A stretch of DNA of 64,000 nucleotides from Escherichia phage dw-ec, in sequence record OL739525.1; one strand, 5' to 3'. Shown in pieces: positions 434 through 8,757 of this stretch. A program made the translations under genes and the position numbers. A model generated the notes under the pieces. That model was given only the letters and a program-made list of their open reading frames with translations, made no database searches and was not told where the DNA came from. Within the stretch, counting starts at the first letter, position 1, and the number at the start of each line of letters is the position of its first letter.

Positions 434-1275
434 TACCTCTCCTTATTAAGTAATACTGCTAAAGACTGTTCAATACCTTTATTTAAATCTGATTTTGTAA
501 GATAGTGACTGGTTACTAGTTGTGACTTCACCGGACGTGCTGCTGGAGCATTATAGGTTGAAGCTGATACCGCCGATATCTTAACAGGTTCTGGCATCTG
601 TGTCAAGATCTTTTCCGCAAACTCCGCCCAAGAAATAAAATGGCTTCCTGCAAAATGGTAAGTCTTAACAGACCTTGACCAACCTGTTTTTAATACTTCA
701 AAAATAGCTTCTGCTAAATCTGGAGCATATGTTGGGCAAGAGAACTGATCAGCAACAACAATAAAATCACGTTGTCCATCATTATAGCGAGACAACATGG
801 TTTTTAGAAAGTTATTTCCAAATTCGCTATATACCGAGGCTGTTCGAATAATATATGCATTTGGGTTAACTCCTCGCACCATTTTTTCACCAAGTTCTTT
901 CGTATACCCATAATTGTTTATTGGGTTAGGTGTAGTATCTTCAAAAATAGGATGAGAATAATTAAAAATATAATCTGTAGAAATATGCACAAAATCAATT
1001 TTAAGTTTGCTGCACACTGCCGCAATATTTGCAGGTCCATATGCATTAACAGCCAAAGCAGTAGCAAAATCATGTTCTGCTTTATCTACAGCCGTATAAG
1101 CAGCGCAGTTAATAACACCGTCTACATAATCTTCAACAATAGCGTTTCGCACAGCTTCAAAATTTGTAATATCTACACGTTCTTTAGGATAAATTAAAGA
1201 TACATTTGAAGGAACCACTTTACGTAAAGCTTGTCCCAGTTGTCCATTACCACCCAATACCAGATATATTAGCAT
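433..1275 (-). CDS. rmlD: dTDP-4-dehydrorhamnose reductase-like (RmlD family)
   Basis: N-terminal GGNGQLG Rossmann motif; NCAAYTAVDKAE, ISTDYIF, YGYTKELGE, GNNFLKTML, DQFSCPT match RmlD landmark blocks; 280 aa. Confidence 0.7.
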   Translation of the reverse strand: MLIYLVLGGNGQLGQALRKVVPSNVSLIYPKERVDITNFEAVRNAIVEDYVDGVINCAAYTAVDKAEHDFATALAVNAYGPANIAAVCSKLKIDFVHISTDYIFNYSHPIFEDTTPNPINNYGYTKELGEKMVRGVNPNAYIIRTASVYSEFGNNFLKTMLSRYNDGQRDFIVVADQFSCPTYAPDLAEAIFEVLKTGWSRSVKTYHFAGSHFISWAEFAEKILTQMPEPVKISAVSASTYNAPAARPVKSQLVTSHYLTKSDLNKGIEQSLAVLLNKER

Positions 1276-1835
1276 ACACCCTCACTACGCAACTGTTGAA
1301 AAGATTTAGCCATTGCATCTTTTGTTGATAAGATAGGTTTAAAATCTTCATCAAAAATCATATCAAAGCCCCAATCGATCCCTATATCAGGATCATCCCA
1401 ACGTAAACTTTGTTCGCTAGAAGGGTCGTATGGAGTTGTGCATTTGTATTCAAAGATAGCATCCATACTCAAAACTATAAAACCATGTGCCAAACCAGGT
1501 GGAAGCCAAAATTGCGTATGGTGTCGTGCACGAAGAACAACACCGTCCCAAGCACCGTAAGTTGGACTATCTTTACGTAAATCTACAGCGAAATCCAATA
1601 CTTCTCCACTTACACAACGAACAAGCTTACCTTGCGGGTTGTTTGTTTGGAAGTGCATTCCTCGCAAAACACCGAAGTTTGATTTAGACATGTTATCTTG
1701 AACGAAAGTTTGTCTACCAATAATATCTTCGTATTTTTGTTCATTGTATGTTTCTAAAAAGAAACCACGATCATCTTTATAAACGTCTGGTTTGATAATT
1801 ACCGCACCTTCAATTTTTGTTTTTTCTACTTTCAT
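1269..1835 (-). CDS. rmlC: dTDP-4-dehydrorhamnose 3,5-epimerase-like (RmlC cupin)
   Basis: DDRGFFLETY...QDNMSKSNFGVLRGMHFQ matches RmlC signature; 188 aa; 7-nt overlap with rmlD-like gene. Confidence 0.7.
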   Translation of the reverse strand: MKVEKTKIEGAVIIKPDVYKDDRGFFLETYNEQKYEDIIGRQTFVQDNMSKSNFGVLRGMHFQTNNPQGKLVRCVSGEVLDFAVDLRKDSPTYGAWDGVVLRARHHTQFWLPPGLAHGFIVLSMDAIFEYKCTTPYDPSSEQSLRWDDPDIGIDWGFDMIFDEDFKPILSTKDAMAKSFQQLRSEGVC

Positions 1836-1844
1836 TTTCTCTCC

Positions 1845-2171
1845 TTACCAGACATGTTGAGAAATAATAGTTTCCGTTTTAATGTTATATTTTTCAAGTA
1901 GCTCTGCATAGGCTTCTTTTGCATTCTCATTTAATTGCTCAAGATCTACAGCTACGCTTCCTTCTCCGCCTTCTAAATAAATACCATATATGCAATAAGA
2001 CTCATCAGCATCGTAGAAAGGAGAGATGCGACTTAAGTCCAGACCTTCTTGTAAGAACCAGTTAAAATCTCCGTCAAATTCTTCTTCAATTCTAGGATCT
2101 TCTCCTACAGCCTCTTCCCACTTATTAAAAGGTGCACCCTGTAACATACGCCATTCGATATCAATACCCAT
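1845..2171 (-). CDS. hypothetical protein (acidic, 108 aa)
   Basis: ORF track; GAGGAGGA RBS upstream of ATG. Confidence 0.5.
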   Translation of the reverse strand: MGIDIEWRMLQGAPFNKWEEAVGEDPRIEEEFDGDFNWFLQEGLDLSRISPFYDADESYCIYGIYLEGGEGSVAVDLEQLNENAKEAYAELLEKYNIKTETIISQHVW

Positions 2172-2463: not shown

Positions 2464-2673
2464 TTATTCCTCCTTAATTATTTCAAACTTGGCAACACCA
2501 TTTACAATAATATGACCACAAGACATAACTCCTAGCCAAGGATCGCCGTTTTTCTTCAGGCGTTTACCGAATACATCACAAAAACCATTCTTCATTTCGG
2601 AGGCTTCATAAGAAGCCCCTTTGTCAAAAACGTCTTTGAATGTGTCGATTATACCAACACATCTCAAAATCAT
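2464..2673 (-). CDS. hypothetical protein (69 aa)
   Basis: ORF track; start overlaps nrdB stop (coupled). Confidence 0.45.
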   Translation of the reverse strand: MILRCVGIIDTFKDVFDKGASYEASEMKNGFCDVFGKRLKKNGDPWLGVMSCGHIIVNGVAKFEIIKEE

Positions 2674-3758
2674 TAGAAGTCAAGCTCCTCATCATCAGAG
2701 AGATCTTTGTTAGCTGAATTCAATTTGTAATTAGTTAACTGAATCTCTTGGGCTGCTGACTGAATCAAATCAGGATTCAACCATTTTTCCATCCAAGCTA
2801 AAGGACTATGTTTAGGTGCTTTAAACTTGGCTTTCATTTTCAATCGACGATAAATAGGAGCAGCATTGAAATAAACCCACTGTTTAGACAATTCGGCGTT
2901 AAGACCTACAATAAAACGACCTTCACTAAACAGGTAGTCACACCACTGTTCCTCTTGTTCAACAACAGTGTCGAGGATCAAAGTCAACTCTTCAATATTG
3001 TCTTCGTAAATTTTACGCCAAATTGGGTCATGCATCAATGCATCAATTACAGCATAATCCATCTTAACATGCAAGATTTCATCTAGCATAATTTTCTGGA
3101 TCAGCTTACAAGCCCCAACAAACAATTGTTGTTCTGCCATAGCAAAAGTAGCAGAGAAGGAAGATATAAACTGAATACCTTCTAATCCAATCAGGGCTAC
3201 CATCCCTTTAAGAATCAGCAATCGAAGTTCATCGTTAGCTTCAATCAATCCTAGAGCATACTTATGACCAGCTTCTTCCAACTGACCCATGATATCAGCA
3301 ATGATACCCATACGATTGAAAATTTTATCATTAATCATAATCTGATTGATGACTTCAATTGGATCTGGAGTACATTGACGAATTATTTCAGAATACGTTA
3401 ACGCATGGAGAACTTCCATTTCACTCTGCTTCATCATCATAGCACAGGCTTCATTGTTACTCAAGAATGGAGAGAACAAAGTGATGATTGATTTTGCAAG
3501 AGAATCATTTTCCCATTGGAACGATAAGTTTTTAATCATAACATCATAGTTGTTTTTAGAACAAGCTACGAAATCTTTACGTGTCTGATCCAAGTTAACT
3601 TCGTTTTCATCCCAATCTTGTGCTTTTTGAAGTTTGTAGAGTTTGTGCATTTCTGGATAAGTTACGTTAACAGAATCAAAGATCCCTAATTGCTCCCCCA
3701 AAAATACTGGATATTTTCCTGTTTTGTAAACTTCGTTGTGTAAATTAATTGCTGCCAT
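2673..3758 (-). CDS. nrdB: ribonucleotide reductase class Ia small subunit
   Basis: 361 aa; recognised as NrdB by overall sequence character and size, adjacent to nrdA. Confidence 0.9.
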   Translation of the reverse strand: MAAINLHNEVYKTGKYPVFLGEQLGIFDSVNVTYPEMHKLYKLQKAQDWDENEVNLDQTRKDFVACSKNNYDVMIKNLSFQWENDSLAKSIITLFSPFLSNNEACAMMMKQSEMEVLHALTYSEIIRQCTPDPIEVINQIMINDKIFNRMGIIADIMGQLEEAGHKYALGLIEANDELRLLILKGMVALIGLEGIQFISSFSATFAMAEQQLFVGACKLIQKIMLDEILHVKMDYAVIDALMHDPIWRKIYEDNIEELTLILDTVVEQEEQWCDYLFSEGRFIVGLNAELSKQWVYFNAAPIYRRLKMKAKFKAPKHSPLAWMEKWLNPDLIQSAAQEIQLTNYKLNSANKDLSDDEELDF

Positions 3759-4083
3759 TTAAATCCTCCACTATTTCACAAAAACCTCTTAAGCTTAAAA
3801 TATCTTCTTCCTCAAAATCATTGCTCCGGTAGAAAGCTTCCAGTGCTTCCCATACGCTTCTACCAAGTATAACAGTCACTGTTTCTTCACTTCTTGCCCT
3901 TGTTATTGCGTAAGCCGTGGCTTCTGGATAAAAAGATTCCCAAATCTGCATGTTAGCTATTTCAAGACCGCCAAGATAATGGTGACACCAAGTAGGGGTA
4001 AAATCTTCAGGGCGAATCAACAGAGGCTTAAACCCAGGTCGGTAGATTGGGGTTACTCCAGGTAAAACTATAAGTGTGCTCAT
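3745..4083 (-). CDS. hypothetical protein between nrdA and nrdB (about 112 aa)
   Basis: Track ORF 3745..4152 trimmed to the ATG at 4083 that follows GAGGAGG RBS and lies downstream of the nrdA terminator hairpin. Confidence 0.5.
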   Translation of the reverse strand: MSTLIVLPGVTPIYRPGFKPLLIRPEDFTPTWCHHYLGGLEIANMQIWESFYPEATAYAITRARSEETVTVILGRSVWEALEAFYRSNDFEEEDILSLRGFCEIVEDLNGSN

Positions 4084-4093
4084 AATCCTCCTC

Positions 4094-4116
4094 AATAAAA
4101 AGGGGCTGAAGCCCCT
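4094..4116 (-). terminator. intrinsic terminator after nrdA (possible attenuator before nrdB)
   Basis: AGGGGC-TGAA-GCCCCT hairpin with T-run on the minus strand directly after the nrdA stop. Confidence 0.5.
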
Positions 4117-4123
4117 AGTTTCA

Positions 4124-6364
4124 TCACATCTTGCAAGCTTCACAACCACCATCAGAATCTTCTTGTGCTAAAGAGTCTGCTGATTTTGTTCTACTATTAA
4201 GGTAATACAACGACTTACCACCCAGTCTAGCAAAATTCAGAATAAACTGCATCTCAGCTTTCACTGATAAACGTCCACCTACCAATTTAGAATAATCTAG
4301 CCAAGAATCACAAGAAATTCCTTGGTCCGTAAACTTGGTAAAGATACCATACATTTCTGCAAGGTCTTTAGCCGGAGTGTCCCAGGCGGACTGGTAGAAC
4401 ATTTTCAGTTTTTCGTAGTCTGGAACAATAAATAATACACTACCTTTCTGACTTTGTTTATACATAATAGTATCACGAACAGGATACAGAGAGTTAGTAG
4501 TATTGCTTACCAAACTGCTGGACTCATTAGGTGCGATAGCAGCCAAGACACTGTTACGGATACCACCTTGTTCAATGATTTCAGCACGTAAGCCTTCCCA
4601 GTCCATTTTAAGATCAAAATTACCGATACTATCTACTGTTTTAGCATAAGTGTCAATTGGTAGCCAACCTTGAGGCCATTTGGTCTTATCAATCCATTCC
4701 GCATTACCTTTTTCCTTAGCCAGACGCAGAGAGGCTTTTGCCAACCAGAAGTAATGACGTTCTGCAAGTTCATGCATTAATTTTTTAGCGTAAGCATCTG
4801 AATAATTTACAAAATTACTTGCCAAGTAATGCGCTAAGTTTGTAATGCCTACACCAATAGATCTACGTGCTTTAGCAGTTATTTCGTTATGTTTAAATGG
4901 ATAATCCATTGTTTCAATAACGTTGTCAATTGTCAATACAGTGTAGTATGCAACATCCTCATATTCTTCAGGTAAGACACGACCAGCAACAATAGAAGAT
5001 AAGAAGCATAAAGCCAACTCTTGATCTTCTGTATTCTCACCAGTAAAGAGATCCGGCATACTGTGGAAAGCTTTAGTTGGTAAGAAGATCTCTTGACACA
5101 GGTTTGATTGATACACCGTATCCAGGAAAGGTGTATGGTTGTTAACGTTGTCAGCAAAGAACATGTAAATACGTCCTGTTTCTGCACGTTGAACAATAAT
5201 CTCTGTCAGAAGATCACGAGCCTTAACAAATTTTTTCTTAATGCGACGACGGCTTACTTTGTCATAAACTGCATCAAACTCTTCTTCACTTTTATACAAA
5301 GCTTCATAAAGTTCAGGAGCATCATCACAACTAACTAACATCCAATCTTCGTTTTTTGCTGCTCGACGCAAGAATGAACGGTTAACAACAATAGAATAAT
5401 CCAGTTTGTCTACTCGTTTATCTATAGGTGTTGTTGGATTCTTCAGTCGAATCAGATCGTCGAAGTCTGGTTCAAGTATGGTAAAGGTAACTGTAGCACT
5501 ACCTCCACGGCTTGCTTGCTTCGAAGCTCCAACACTATCTTCCATCCATTTCAGATACGGAAGAAGACCACCATGAATAATACGATTATTCTTAACACCT
5601 TGACCTGTGGCACGAGTTTGAAGATTAACACCAATACCTGCGTTATTCAACGTATACTCATGAGCTAAGTAATTAGCAATGGCTAAAGACTCTGCTGTGT
5701 CATCTGCACGGAATAAACAACAAGACGCACTTCCTTTGATTGGAGTTCGTAGAGTTGTCAGATATGGTGATGGCAGATTAATCTTAAGATCGCTAACATA
5801 AGTATACAGTTTTTTAATATCTTCTATACGGCGTTCTTTTGGTTGGATCTCCATAACCTTCATTGCGATACCAATGAAAAGAAACTGTGGAGACTCATGC
5901 ACCACATCGTTTACTGCATCTCGGATAAGATATTTATCCACCATCTGACGTAAAACAGAATAGCCATAAGTTAGATTTTTATTATGCTTTACAATCTTAC
6001 CAATTTCTTTGATCTCTTCATCAGTATAATCCATTTTAGCCCAATGTCCACGTTCTACCATATCATGATAAAAGGTATTCAGTGAAGGGATACTGTGGTA
6101 TCCCCCATGAGCCTGTTTGTAAATCATACCCAGAAGAAGTCTTCCTGCCATATCACTGTAAGCTTGTGTTTTCTTGTCAATACACGCTGCAATCATTGCT
6201 TTATGCAGATCACGTGTAGACACACCGTCATAACACCGCTTCACAGCTTCTAATTCAATTTCAGACCAGTTTAGTTTACCTGCTGCAAATTCAGACCACT
6301 TGCGAAGTTTTTCTGGATTAAACTCCTCTGTCTTACCGTTAGATTTAGTTACAAAACGAATCAA
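4124..6364 (-). CDS. nrdA: ribonucleotide reductase class Ia large subunit
   Basis: 746 aa; recognised as NrdA by overall sequence character and size, with C-terminal Cys residues. Confidence 0.92.
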   Translation of the reverse strand: MIRFVTKSNGKTEEFNPEKLRKWSEFAAGKLNWSEIELEAVKRCYDGVSTRDLHKAMIAACIDKKTQAYSDMAGRLLLGMIYKQAHGGYHSIPSLNTFYHDMVERGHWAKMDYTDEEIKEIGKIVKHNKNLTYGYSVLRQMVDKYLIRDAVNDVVHESPQFLFIGIAMKVMEIQPKERRIEDIKKLYTYVSDLKINLPSPYLTTLRTPIKGSASCCLFRADDTAESLAIANYLAHEYTLNNAGIGVNLQTRATGQGVKNNRIIHGGLLPYLKWMEDSVGASKQASRGGSATVTFTILEPDFDDLIRLKNPTTPIDKRVDKLDYSIVVNRSFLRRAAKNEDWMLVSCDDAPELYEALYKSEEEFDAVYDKVSRRRIKKKFVKARDLLTEIIVQRAETGRIYMFFADNVNNHTPFLDTVYQSNLCQEIFLPTKAFHSMPDLFTGENTEDQELALCFLSSIVAGRVLPEEYEDVAYYTVLTIDNVIETMDYPFKHNEITAKARRSIGVGITNLAHYLASNFVNYSDAYAKKLMHELAERHYFWLAKASLRLAKEKGNAEWIDKTKWPQGWLPIDTYAKTVDSIGNFDLKMDWEGLRAEIIEQGGIRNSVLAAIAPNESSSLVSNTTNSLYPVRDTIMYKQSQKGSVLFIVPDYEKLKMFYQSAWDTPAKDLAEMYGIFTKFTDQGISCDSWLDYSKLVGGRLSVKAEMQFILNFARLGGKSLYYLNSRTKSADSLAQEDSDGGCEACKM

Positions 6365-6380: not shown

Positions 6381-6635
6381 TTAATGCATATTCAAAACAT
6401 CTACATCATAACCGAACTTCATTTCATTAAAAAGTCCATTAGCATATAGAAAACCTTCAAAATGAGTTATGTCATCAAACCCTTTTGCTTTTGCTCGACG
6501 GTCTGCTTCTTGTCTTTTAGGAGATAAACGTTTTGAAGTGTCTAGAATTACAGTTACATTACAACCAACAGTTTCATCAAAATAGACTTCGATTTCACAG
6601 CCTTCATATTTATTATCAGTCATTGTCCCTCTCAT
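6381..6635 (-). CDS. hypothetical protein (84 aa)
   Basis: ORF track. Confidence 0.45.
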   Translation of the reverse strand: MRGTMTDNKYEGCEIEVYFDETVGCNVTVILDTSKRLSPKRQEADRRAKAKGFDDITHFEGFLYANGLFNEMKFGYDVDVLNMH

Positions 6636-7052
6636 TGATTAGTATCATCTGCTTTCGCAGGATCATAAGAGTTACCGAAATCATCCATCTTAATATGTGA
6701 CGCACCCCAACCTGTAAATTCTTCATCACCAAAATGAAAAATATCATTTTCTTGATAGATTCGTTTAAAACCACAATTAGGTGAAACAGGGAAAGTGAAA
6801 AGCGTTGTATTTGCAAACACTACTCGCTTATCGTTATTGCTTCGGATATTCACATTACGCTCAACAGAATAGTGTGAATCTTCAGCCATACCCAGCATTA
6901 CAAGCGACGCTCTAATAACAGCATTTTGTTTCTCGTGTGGGATATTGCCATTGTGTTTATTTGATTCTAGTTTCCAGATAGGGGTAGACATTACAGTAGA
7001 CATGCTTACGGTAGCCCAAGTTGTAGTATTTACTAATGACATATTTTCTCCT
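6632..7052 (-). CDS. hypothetical protein (about 140 aa)
   Basis: Track ORF 6632..7075 trimmed to ATG at 7052 preceded by AAGGAG RBS. Confidence 0.5.
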
Positions 7053-7096
7053 TCGTTTTGAATGGGAGGACTCACCTCCTCCCAGTATTGTGCTAT

Positions 7097-7124
7097 ATTA
7101 TACTAAAACTAATACTAAAGTCAA
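7097..7124 (-). promoter_or_regulatory. sigma70-like promoter (TTGACT-16-TATAAT)
   Basis: Near-consensus -35 and -10 on minus strand upstream of a GGGAGG...CCTCCC hairpin and the 7052 start. Confidence 0.5.
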
Positions 7125-7140
7125 TAACTATTTAAACAGA

Positions 7141-8139
7141 TCACCATTTAGTATGATTTGTTAAAAGTTGACGATGTTGAATCCAGCCTTTGAAATTGCC
7201 AGACCAAAACTTACCATTACGATCTACATGGGTAATACCTGGTTCCCAAGAGTTAAAATCCCAAGGAGCATTGATAAACAAATCTTCAAAACAGTTCTCT
7301 CCATATTGTTCGTATGTTTCTTGCATTGGAGTGGCTTGATGTTCAAACGGAGAAGCATGAACCTTGCGCCCAGTCAGCAAACGACCATAGATATCTAAAG
7401 CTTTATCTTTAGTTGCATTTAAACGACGATAGCTAACCTGTGCACAACACGAAGCTGAAATAGCTTTGGCTTCTTCCAAAGTAAGCACAACAACTTCTCC
7501 AGATTCATCTTGAACATAGTATCCACCAAAAACAAAATGATCGTCACCTTCTGTGCCAATATTATCATAGAAATGGTTTACATAAGGTGTGTGCCATTGC
7601 CCTGGTTTCAGCACTTCTGGTGTAGATTCTTCATACTCTTTGTGCATCTCTTTAGCCAAAGCTTCGATAGTAGGATCGGCTTCTTTGTCATCACGTAGCC
7701 ACCAGAAATTTTCATATTCTGTTGCTGTCAGAACTGTTTTAATTCGTTGGAAAGGTTCCAGAAGACGGTTTGCAACTTGTTTGTGGTACCCTGCCAAAGA
7801 GAATTCTTCTGCAAAACGTGCTGCACTAAGCGCGGCAAGATCCCACCACTCTTGAGCAGTATAACCTGCATCAATAAGAGCATCATGGTCAACACCTTTG
7901 TCCTGCATACCAGGTTGGTTAGCCCCGAAACGATAAGGACGAGCAGGCTGATTTCGAACCATTTCGATCAGTGTTTTAACAGGTATAGCACGGCTAGAAG
8001 CAGCATTACGACTGAACAGGCGGTGAGTCATCAGTTCTGAATGAATAATACGTGGATATTCAAGTTCGAAAGTTACAATCTCTTTTCCGTCTTCAGTGAT
8101 GGAATGTGCAATAATACTAGCCGAAATCTGTTTTGTCAT
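7141..8139 (-). CDS. ThyX-like (flavin-dependent thymidylate synthase family) protein, divergent
   Basis: TFELEYPRIIHSELMTHRLFSRNAASSRAIP resembles the ThyX RHR...S...S.RY block; HASPFEH motif present but near the C-terminus; 332 aa, longer than typical ThyX. Confidence 0.55.
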   Translation of the reverse strand: MTKQISASIIAHSITEDGKEIVTFELEYPRIIHSELMTHRLFSRNAASSRAIPVKTLIEMVRNQPARPYRFGANQPGMQDKGVDHDALIDAGYTAQEWWDLAALSAARFAEEFSLAGYHKQVANRLLEPFQRIKTVLTATEYENFWWLRDDKEADPTIEALAKEMHKEYEESTPEVLKPGQWHTPYVNHFYDNIGTEGDDHFVFGGYYVQDESGEVVVLTLEEAKAISASCCAQVSYRRLNATKDKALDIYGRLLTGRKVHASPFEHQATPMQETYEQYGENCFEDLFINAPWDFNSWEPGITHVDRNGKFWSGNFKGWIQHRQLLTNHTKW

Positions 8140-8148
8140 TTTTTCTCC

Positions 8149-8757
8149 TTAGTTTTTAAAATTGTTCAAAGTGTTAAAAACATCCAAACATGTTAGCCAC
8201 TGATCTTCTAAACCTGTGATCACAACATTTGGTTTTTTCTTTAGTTCTTCTAGATGGTTATCTTTATAAGGCGTATTAAAATATATTTTAACCACTTCAT
8301 CTGGAAAATATAGTAGGTTATCAGCCCTGTCATCTATTGCTATATCACAAGGCAATAAGTATTTTTCTTTCGTAGCAAAAAAGCCGTTGCCAGATCCTTT
8401 GCTAAAATCAATCGTATCTAATGTTCTTAAAACATGCTTATGTTTAGAACTTAAGTGACCACCTTTTGTCACACTTGCGATCAAAAGATTGCTACCTTTC
8501 CTTGAAACATACTTTAAGAAATCTGGCATACCTGGAACAAAACCCATTGTATCATAGAGATGAGGATTATCCAGAAATCCGTAAGGATCTATATTGAACT
8601 CCTCCCTGAAACCAGGAAAGTAGTTGGTAAGATCGTAATCTGCATTTTTTGTGAATGTGTCGATTTTAACACCAAGGCCACTAATCTTATTCAACCATTC
8701 TAACCAAGCAACATCTAACGGAGCCACAACTAAATCCCAATCACATACTATCTGCAT
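8149..8757 (-). CDS. HAD-superfamily hydrolase (possible 5-prime nucleotidase)
   Basis: N-terminal IVCDWDLVV (DxD motif I); 202 aa. Confidence 0.45.
   Translation of the reverse strand: MQIVCDWDLVVAPLDVAWLEWLNKISGLGVKIDTFTKNADYDLTNYFPGFREEFNIDPYGFLDNPHLYDTMGFVPGMPDFLKYVSRKGSNLLIASVTKGGHLSSKHKHVLRTLDTIDFSKGSGNGFFATKEKYLLPCDIAIDDRADNLLYFPDEVVKIYFNTPYKDNHLEELKKKPNVVITGLEDQWLTCLDVFNTLNNFKN

Follow-up and report, generated by a model that had tools for sequence, protein, structure and literature searches.

The window analysed here is a stretch of 64,000 nucleotides of Escherichia phage dw-ec (OL739525.1). It represents a phAPEC8-like Phapecoctavirus of E. coli, with 98-99.5% identity over 8 kb to many isolates, where the gene studied here is labelled 'thymidylate synthase', 'FAD-dependent thymidylate synthase' or 'ThyX'. 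The gene is a complete ORF of 332 aa on the minus strand (7141-8139, stop codon included, from the ORF list); the plus-strand translation of the same interval is full of stops. Its assignment as a permuted ThyX-family thymidylate synthase draws on the ORF list, Pfam Thy1, PHROG_85 and an AlphaFold2 (AF2) model. A Shine-Dalgarno sequence, AAGGAG, can be read at 8145..8150 (minus strand), with 5 nt between it and the ATG, which starts at base 8139. This element overlaps the stop codon of the gene upstream, which runs in the same direction (8149..8757, minus strand) and encodes an NT5C-type 5'(3')-deoxyribonucleotidase of 202 aa (PF06941, E 9.4e-6, 26.1 bits, cut-off 24.8). The overlap of the NT5C stop codon with the ThyX ribosome-binding site suggests translational coupling. 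A dNMP phosphatase adjoining a dTMP synthase is metabolically curious.

The minus-strand block continues, in the order NT5C-type nucleotidase, ThyX, two small ORFs, NrdA, NrdB and, further on, glutaredoxin. NrdA, the large subunit of a class Ia ribonucleotide reductase (RNR), comprises 746 aa and lies downstream of ThyX at 4124..6364 (minus strand), as supported by the ORF list and by the annotation of phage anhysbys, which is 99.5% identical to the window in this region; NrdB follows at about 2994-4079. The two small ORFs between ThyX and NrdA, of 147 aa (6632-7075, minus strand) and 84 aa (6381-6635, minus strand), have no Pfam match, and relatives retain both as hypothetical proteins. The ThyX stop is followed by a 65-nt gap with a near-consensus sigma-70 promoter (7097-7124, minus strand; TTGACT, 16-nt spacer, TATAAT; 11/12 matches), whose placement would suit expression of both small ORFs and of nrdAB; it is taken as a consensus match only, because promoter-like sites in the region are not above shuffles. 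Genes resembling dTDP-4-dehydrorhamnose reductase and epimerase (~751-2153, minus strand, by correspondence with anhysbys gp191-192) adjoin glutaredoxin and NrdB. Outside the window, anhysbys gp013-016 are four glycosyltransferase genes beside primase and DNA polymerase, and their target may be host polysaccharide or DNA.

Elsewhere, homologues of the gene neighbour a dCTP deaminase (N4-like phages), a dNMP kinase (a Mesorhizobium phage) and RNR (Caulobacter and Pseudomonas phages). In Pseudomonas phage PaoP5_127, a 114-aa ORF right after the ThyX homologue (L005, 3448-3792) is called 'thymidylate synthase' without a Pfam match, a label that was probably carried over during annotation. Neither ThyA, canonical ThyX, DHFR, Dut nor Dcd was found by annotation or tblastn in the complete anhysbys genome. 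A missing DHFR fits a ThyX-type enzyme. In jumbo phages, thymidylate synthase correlates with DHFR and anticorrelates with ThyX (PMC7824862).

The initial annotation had described the product as ThyX-like and proposed profile alignment and structure prediction as checks, and both bore it out. Pfam Thy1 (PF02511) matches residues 22-175 with E 1.7e-8 and 34.9 bits (cut-off 24.8), along profile positions 59-191 of 191; because the match starts at 59, the first ~58 positions, which hold HxSxxEH in canonical ThyX, remain unmatched in order. PHROG_85, annotated 'thymidylate synthase', matches residues 3-332 with E 7.2e-109, and the NCBIfam ThyX equivalog TIGR02170 reaches 31.6 bits, far under its cut-off of 87.9. 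When a 31-sequence family alignment (A2) was compared by hhalign with ten canonical ThyX sequences (A3), with the T. maritima (Tm) ThyX reference verified as identical to PDB 1KQ4, one collinear alignment joined family residues 21-175 to Tm 61-200 (96.5%, E 9.5e-10). With T. maritima ThyX as tblastn query the gene goes undetected at E<10 and is therefore very divergent from it. A single-sequence search of PDB sequences returned no relative of the phage protein (best match, a retron OLD nuclease, E 0.07) and no solved structure for any member of the rearranged family. The AF2 model built from A2 has a pLDDT of 84.6 and a pTM of 0.86. With this model as Foldseek query, the best 50 of 83 matches at E<=0.001 are all ThyX or PolB, with a target-normalised TM of about 0.5, and by this fold search the predicted structure has the three-dimensional ThyX fold. 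The superposition is partial, as sequential structure aligners bring together only about 135-160 of about 220 ThyX residues.

In canonical ThyX, a strand is followed by a two-helix hairpin ending in HxSxxEH, then by a strand and the RHR...S.R motif, and finally by the helical core. In T. maritima ThyX, H53-ETPFE-H59 comes before R78-H-R80...S88-G-R90-Y91, and this order is reversed in the phage protein. The RHR/serine-like block that had been noticed near the N-terminus, TFELEYPRIIHSELMTHRLFSRNAASSRAIP, occupies residues 23-53 and contains T38-H-R...S48-S-R50, and the HASPFEH noticed near the C-terminus is found at residues 261-267. The chain opens with a predicted beta strand at residues 6-14 (8098..8124, minus strand; AF2 strands 6-14 and 20-29, alignment A1) that pairs directly with strand 20-29, the canonical hairpin between these two strands being absent from the AF2 model and from alignment A1. 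A predicted helix (residues 30-37) leads into T38-H-R40, the start of the ThyX-motif counterpart THRLFSRNAASSRA (residues 38-51; 7987..8028, minus strand), which was placed by the hhalign register and by conservation over 316 sequences. The motif belongs to the collinear ThyX core, residues 21-175 (7615..8079, minus strand), equivalent to Tm 61-200, whose helical part, with a strand at 132-139, extends to residue 175 in the AF2 model.

Just past the canonical C-terminus lies a family-specific motif, GQWHTPY (residues 180-186; 7582..7602, minus strand), with H183 and P185 each present in 313/314 members and no counterpart in the canonical alignment A3. It is followed by a lineage-specific, predicted three-stranded beta insertion at residues 188-219 (7483..7578, minus strand; AF2 strands 188-193, 202-210 and 216-219), mostly missing from ~270-aa cellular and short phage members in alignment A4. 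Next comes the transposed module of two helices and an HxSPxEH loop, residues 221-267 (7339..7479, minus strand), recognised by HMMER, hhalign, a segment HMM and AF2 and homologous to canonical ThyX ~15-59. In the AF2 model its helices span 221-235 and 244-256, and a low-confidence loop at 257-261 precedes HASPFEH (7339..7359, minus strand), which corresponds to Tm H53-ETPFE-H59 and is marked out by family conservation and by an intein site. A second variable region separates this loop from a conserved C-terminal tail, FWSGNFKGWIQHRQL (residues 311-325; 7165..7209, minus strand), delimited by conservation, with the consensus (W)SGNF.G..Q.R (N315 in 289/297, Q321 in 292/297 and R323 in 297/297) and predicted by AF2 to form short strands and a helix. 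The tail weakly resembles canonical residues 159-173 (FWTVNARSLMNFLNL) in an hhalign alternative alignment with E 0.005 and a probability of only 7%. A reading of the tail (...GWIQHRQ...) as a relic second RHR motif was rejected (hhalign E 0.6). The atypical length of 332 aa, which had been remarked on earlier, is accounted for by the two variable insertions, since the shorter members, whether cellular or from phages (about 267-285 aa), lack both and show an unchanged module order (A4). The rearrangement can be described either as a circular permutation with added termini or as a segment transposition, and canonical strand 2 may correspond either to the strand at the N-terminus or to the one directly preceding helix 221-235.

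Three independent searches show the out-of-order match. A family profile run against PDB sequences with HMMER gives non-collinear domains on T. maritima ThyX chains, in which profile 218-268 corresponds to Tm 15-60, 21-50 to Tm 61-90, and 124-171 to Tm 152-199. A second hhalign alignment pairs family residues 233-267 (AQVSYR...HASPFEH) with Tm 27-59 (ARVSF...HETPFEH) at E 1.4e-4. When the N-terminal segment of canonical ThyX (Tm 14-60) was made into an HMM, it matched 315/316 family sequences. In P0001, which is 99% identical to the phage protein, residues 233-267 score 7.4 bits (i-E 2.9e-4), and scores in other members rise to 26.3 bits (i-E 4e-10), for instance on CARTSYRNHNG...LLRKGHMSPFEH in P0305, whereas control sequences reach no more than 4.1 bits when shuffled and 4.0 bits when reversed. 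In 111/111 members scoring >5 bits, this match comes after the core match, at about 73% of protein length. That the protein is an ordinary collinear ThyX whose motifs were mis-ordered on reading, or that the HxSPFEH match arose by chance, is therefore scarcely credible. Its one foothold is that each out-of-order HMMER domain on the PDB chains is weak by itself (1.7 and 0.3 bits). It is refuted by the Pfam Thy1 match, which begins only at profile position 59, by the N-terminus, which has no space for the hairpin because only 20 residues precede the strand leading into the THR motif, and by the segment HMM, with up to 26 bits compared with 4 on shuffles and a position after the core in every one of the 111. 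Judged by sequence, the reversed order reflects homology, not chance, and is a property of the whole family. The case of mis-ordered motifs, which the initial annotation had itself raised, was checked by this out-of-order match. Its proposal of a permuted or highly divergent ThyX is upheld by non-collinear HMMER domains, hhalign, the shuffle-controlled segment HMM and fold searches, which agree.

Conservation was counted over 316 family sequences, including representatives at 50% identity. Near the N-terminus, H39 (310/310), R40 (279/310, the lowest of the retained set), N45 (306/311), S48 (310/312) and R50 (312/312) correspond to Tm H79, R80, N85, S88 and R90. Within the core, R125 (314/314) corresponds approximately to Tm R147, with a register uncertain by one residue, and N144 (315/315) and R149 (316/316) to Tm N169 and R174. 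In the transposed module, H261 (314/314), S263 (305/308), E266 (299/307) and H267 (304/307) match Tm H53, T55, E58 and H59. The equivalents of the uracil- and phosphate-binding arginines (Tm R80, R90, R147, R174), together with those of Ser88 and His53, are retained in the family. It has been described that Tyr91 and Ser88 are strictly conserved and critical in ThyX (PMC11940539; PMC3498832; PMC9931769), that Arg78 stabilises the reduced flavin (FADH-) and contacts dUMP (PMC11940539; PMC3498832), and that His53 of a third subunit stacks on flavin or folate (PMC11940539; PMC3498832; PMC9931769).

Other positions have been replaced. The motif of the phage protein, T-H-R-x-x-S-x-x-x-x-S-x-R, differs from the canonical RHRxxSxxxxSxR in its first Arg, and the Thr substitution seen initially in this single protein turns out to be family-wide, with Tm R78 replaced by T38 in 304/310 members. 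The first Arg varies in canonical phage ThyX too (KHK, KHQ and DHT in A3). More striking, and absent from the initial annotation, is the replacement of Tyr91 by A51 in 312/312 members, a tyrosine that is invariant in the 10 canonical sequences of A3. E86 has become A46 or Ser, and N163 and R165 align by hhalign with T138 and T140. The family has its own invariant positions, namely K120, H183, P185, S236, N315, Q321 and R323. Because Arg78 and Tyr91 are replaced, the details of the active site probably differ from those of canonical ThyX; H183, R323, K120 and R44 can be put forward, speculatively, as candidates to take over their roles. The chromosomal homologue of Calothrix sp. NIES-2100 (L085, 5995-6804) has T-Y-R, not T-H-R, at the ThyX-motif position, so that the otherwise invariant His39 is not strictly needed.

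Several family members of ~520-680 aa carry inteins (P0172, P0181, P0253, P0202, P0276, P0302 and others). These occupy at least four sites: after R40 (...MTHR/C...HN/CFSRN...), after S48, after H261 (...AH/C...N/SSPFEH) and near residue 151/152. Inteins typically occupy the most constrained sites, and their presence inside both motifs therefore supports a functional role for both. Some of these inteins carry HNH-type endonuclease domains. In Flavobacterium phage FPSV-D7 (L007; record UNVERIFIED) the gene is broken into two ORFs exactly where the ThyX core (model 4-189) meets the relocated module (model 218-330), and a GIY-YIG homing-endonuclease ORF lies between the halves (the three ORFs are at 2498-3217, 3231-4055 and ~4039-4428). 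Since an Rfam search found no credible group I intron in the split gene, the modules may function as two independent polypeptides.

The family extends far beyond Phapecoctavirus. It is matched by 1,034 phage records, including N4-like, ICP1, rV5-like and PAK_P1-like phages, and in a library of 1.84 billion proteins by 5,007 representatives at 50% identity with E<=1e-3, some of which may be canonical ThyX, 1,630 of them at E<=1e-30. Among GTDB species genomes, 263/360 pattern matches were confirmed by tblastn to encode relatives. Chromosomal copies in Pseudanabaena show the module order of the phage protein and lie among housekeeping genes. The 275-aa gene of Pseudanabaena minima, whose product NCBI names FAD-dependent thymidylate synthase, sits among cobalamin-synthesis genes, a GAF protein, RecO and malic enzyme, which is not a prophage context. 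The gene in the window is thus a typical member of a very common and routinely annotated family, and not a one-off, a point absent from the initial annotation. Published mentions of these genes treat them as ordinary ThyX. No account of the rearrangement, biochemistry or structure of the family was found in the literature, with the reservation that a 2004 study by Liu and Yang (J Bacteriol 186:6316) may, to judge by its title, touch on the subfamily. What appears to be newly recognised is that the family is a rearranged ThyX devoid of two residues described as conserved.

A natural exchange bears on function. In Rheinheimera phages Barba8S and Barba26S, sequences 99.9% and 98.8% identical flank a locus where the same slot holds a 303-aa rearranged ThyX with two small ORFs in Barba8S (L008, 2477-3813) and a canonical 222-aa ThyX in Barba26S (L009, 2494-3145), and this cassette is a natural like-for-like and recent gene replacement. 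Because of the genomic context and this in-situ exchange with canonical ThyX, ordinary dTMP synthesis is favoured: we give a probability of about 0.75 to the reading that the protein is a rearranged ThyX-fold flavin-dependent thymidylate synthase with its usual function. As for cofactor, oligomer, substrate and chemistry, we infer that FAD binding and an active site formed between subunits are most likely retained, that the enzyme would methylate dUMP to dTMP with methylene-tetrahydrofolate and NAD(P)H, and that this dTMP would feed phage DNA replication alongside the products of the adjacent RNR and nucleotidase genes. The roles of Arg78 and Tyr91 (stabilising the reduced flavin, contacting dUMP, acting as acid or lid) would pass to other family-invariant residues. 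Against this reading can be set, at the level of sequence comparison, Thr and Ala in place of Arg78 and Tyr91, T138 and T140 in place of N163 and R165, and an equivalog score of 31.6 against 87.9.

The same replacements can be explained otherwise. With R78, E86 and Y91 of the pocket replaced, the protein could be a ThyX-fold flavoenzyme of changed chemistry or substrate, acting on another pyrimidine nucleotide as PolB does on UMP, or giving a hydroxymethyl product, and serving a modified base or another pathway. We consider this unlikely, as the dUMP-contacting S48, R50, R40 and R149 are kept, the cassette was exchanged with canonical ThyX between near-isogenic phages, this is the sole thymidylate-synthase-like gene found in the near-identical complete anhysbys genome, and chromosomal housekeeping copies exist in cyanobacteria. 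The >1,000 phage records, which include the long-studied N4-like, ICP1, rV5-like and PAK_P1-like phages, point the same way, and we know of no report of thymine replacement in these groups. The different substrate envisaged at the outset gained no positive support, with context and the Rheinheimera swap favouring dUMP-to-dTMP conversion. Loss of Tyr91, called critical for catalysis, and the equivalog score under threshold could also be taken as signs that catalysis has been lost altogether and that this ThyX-like protein has a regulatory or structural role, binding nucleotide or flavin. This seems very improbable when about 20 active-site-equivalent positions are near-absolutely conserved in 316 diverse sequences, inteins target the active-site motifs, the protein replaces canonical ThyX in situ in the Rheinheimera phages and searches of the near-identical complete genome yielded no second thymidylate synthase.

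For the window itself, the conclusion is modest: this gene would be the phage's thymidylate synthase and, on the evidence of its sequence, is a permuted, divergent ThyX. A wider proposal, that these proteins form a large unrecognised structural class of ThyX in phages and in cyanobacterial, Eremiobacterota and other chromosomes, with a permuted fold and with Tyr91 and Arg78 dispensable, is tentative and at present rather doubtful. If it were true, the active site would be re-wired, catalysis would fall to new residues (H183 and R323, for example), the oligomer might differ, and mechanistic models of ThyX catalysis as well as inhibitor design would need revising. ThyX is a studied drug target and the textbook alternative thymidylate pathway, and in current proposals Tyr91 and Arg78 each have a defined part in catalysis. 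A very large natural subfamily that lacks both residues and has its chain rearranged, yet is placed where a thymidylate synthase is needed, constitutes a natural experiment on the essential features of ThyX. It is found in therapeutic-phage genera (Phapecoctavirus, Pakpunavirus, ICP1 and N4-like phages). For annotation, it matters that curated equivalog models miss these proteins and that Pfam spans only about half of this one (residues 22-175 of 332).

Among known systems, the closest reference is canonical ThyX/FDTS (PF02511), of about 220 aa, represented by T. maritima TM0449 (1KQ4/1O26), M. tuberculosis (2AF6), PBCV-1 A674R (2CFA/4FZB) and H. pylori (3AH5). In the rearranged family, of about 270-330 aa, the hairpin (~15-59 equivalent) comes after the core, a GxWHxPY motif and a GNF.G..Q.R tail are added, scores fall under the TIGR02170 cut-off, and R78, Y91, E86 and N163/R165 are exchanged for Thr, Ala, Ala/Ser and Thr/Thr, respectively. 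For canonical ThyX, FAD binding, a homotetramer with three subunits per active site, dUMP-dependent NAD(P)H oxidation and dTMP formation have been documented (PMC9931769; PMC5954106). ThyA with DHFR would share the proposed output, dTMP for phage replication, with an unrelated fold and mechanism, and both are absent from the near-identical complete genome of anhysbys. The study of Liu and Yang is reportedly concerned with the intein-bearing ThyX of the cyanobacterium Trichodesmium, with 'distinctive ThyX motifs' in the title, and to that extent recalls the rearranged family, which also has cyanobacterial chromosomal members and inteins in its motifs. PolB, the UMP/dUMP methylase of polyoxin biosynthesis in Streptomyces cacaoi (PDB 4P5A), is, by sequence, collinear with T. 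maritima ThyX along nearly its whole length (Tm 6-208 with chain 9-234, E 3.7e-34) and belongs to a secondary-metabolite cluster with an altered substrate, whereas the rearranged family is permuted and occurs in DNA-precursor contexts. Finally, tandem two-domain ThyX proteins, such as chlamydial ThyX, illustrate that units can duplicate or fuse in one chain, the usual first step toward permutation. The simplest route to the rearranged family would be for two ThyX units to arise by tandem duplication or to fuse, and then to lose complementary parts. Tandem ThyX retains two recognisable collinear domains, whereas the rearranged family has one core, a relocated hairpin and a short tail.
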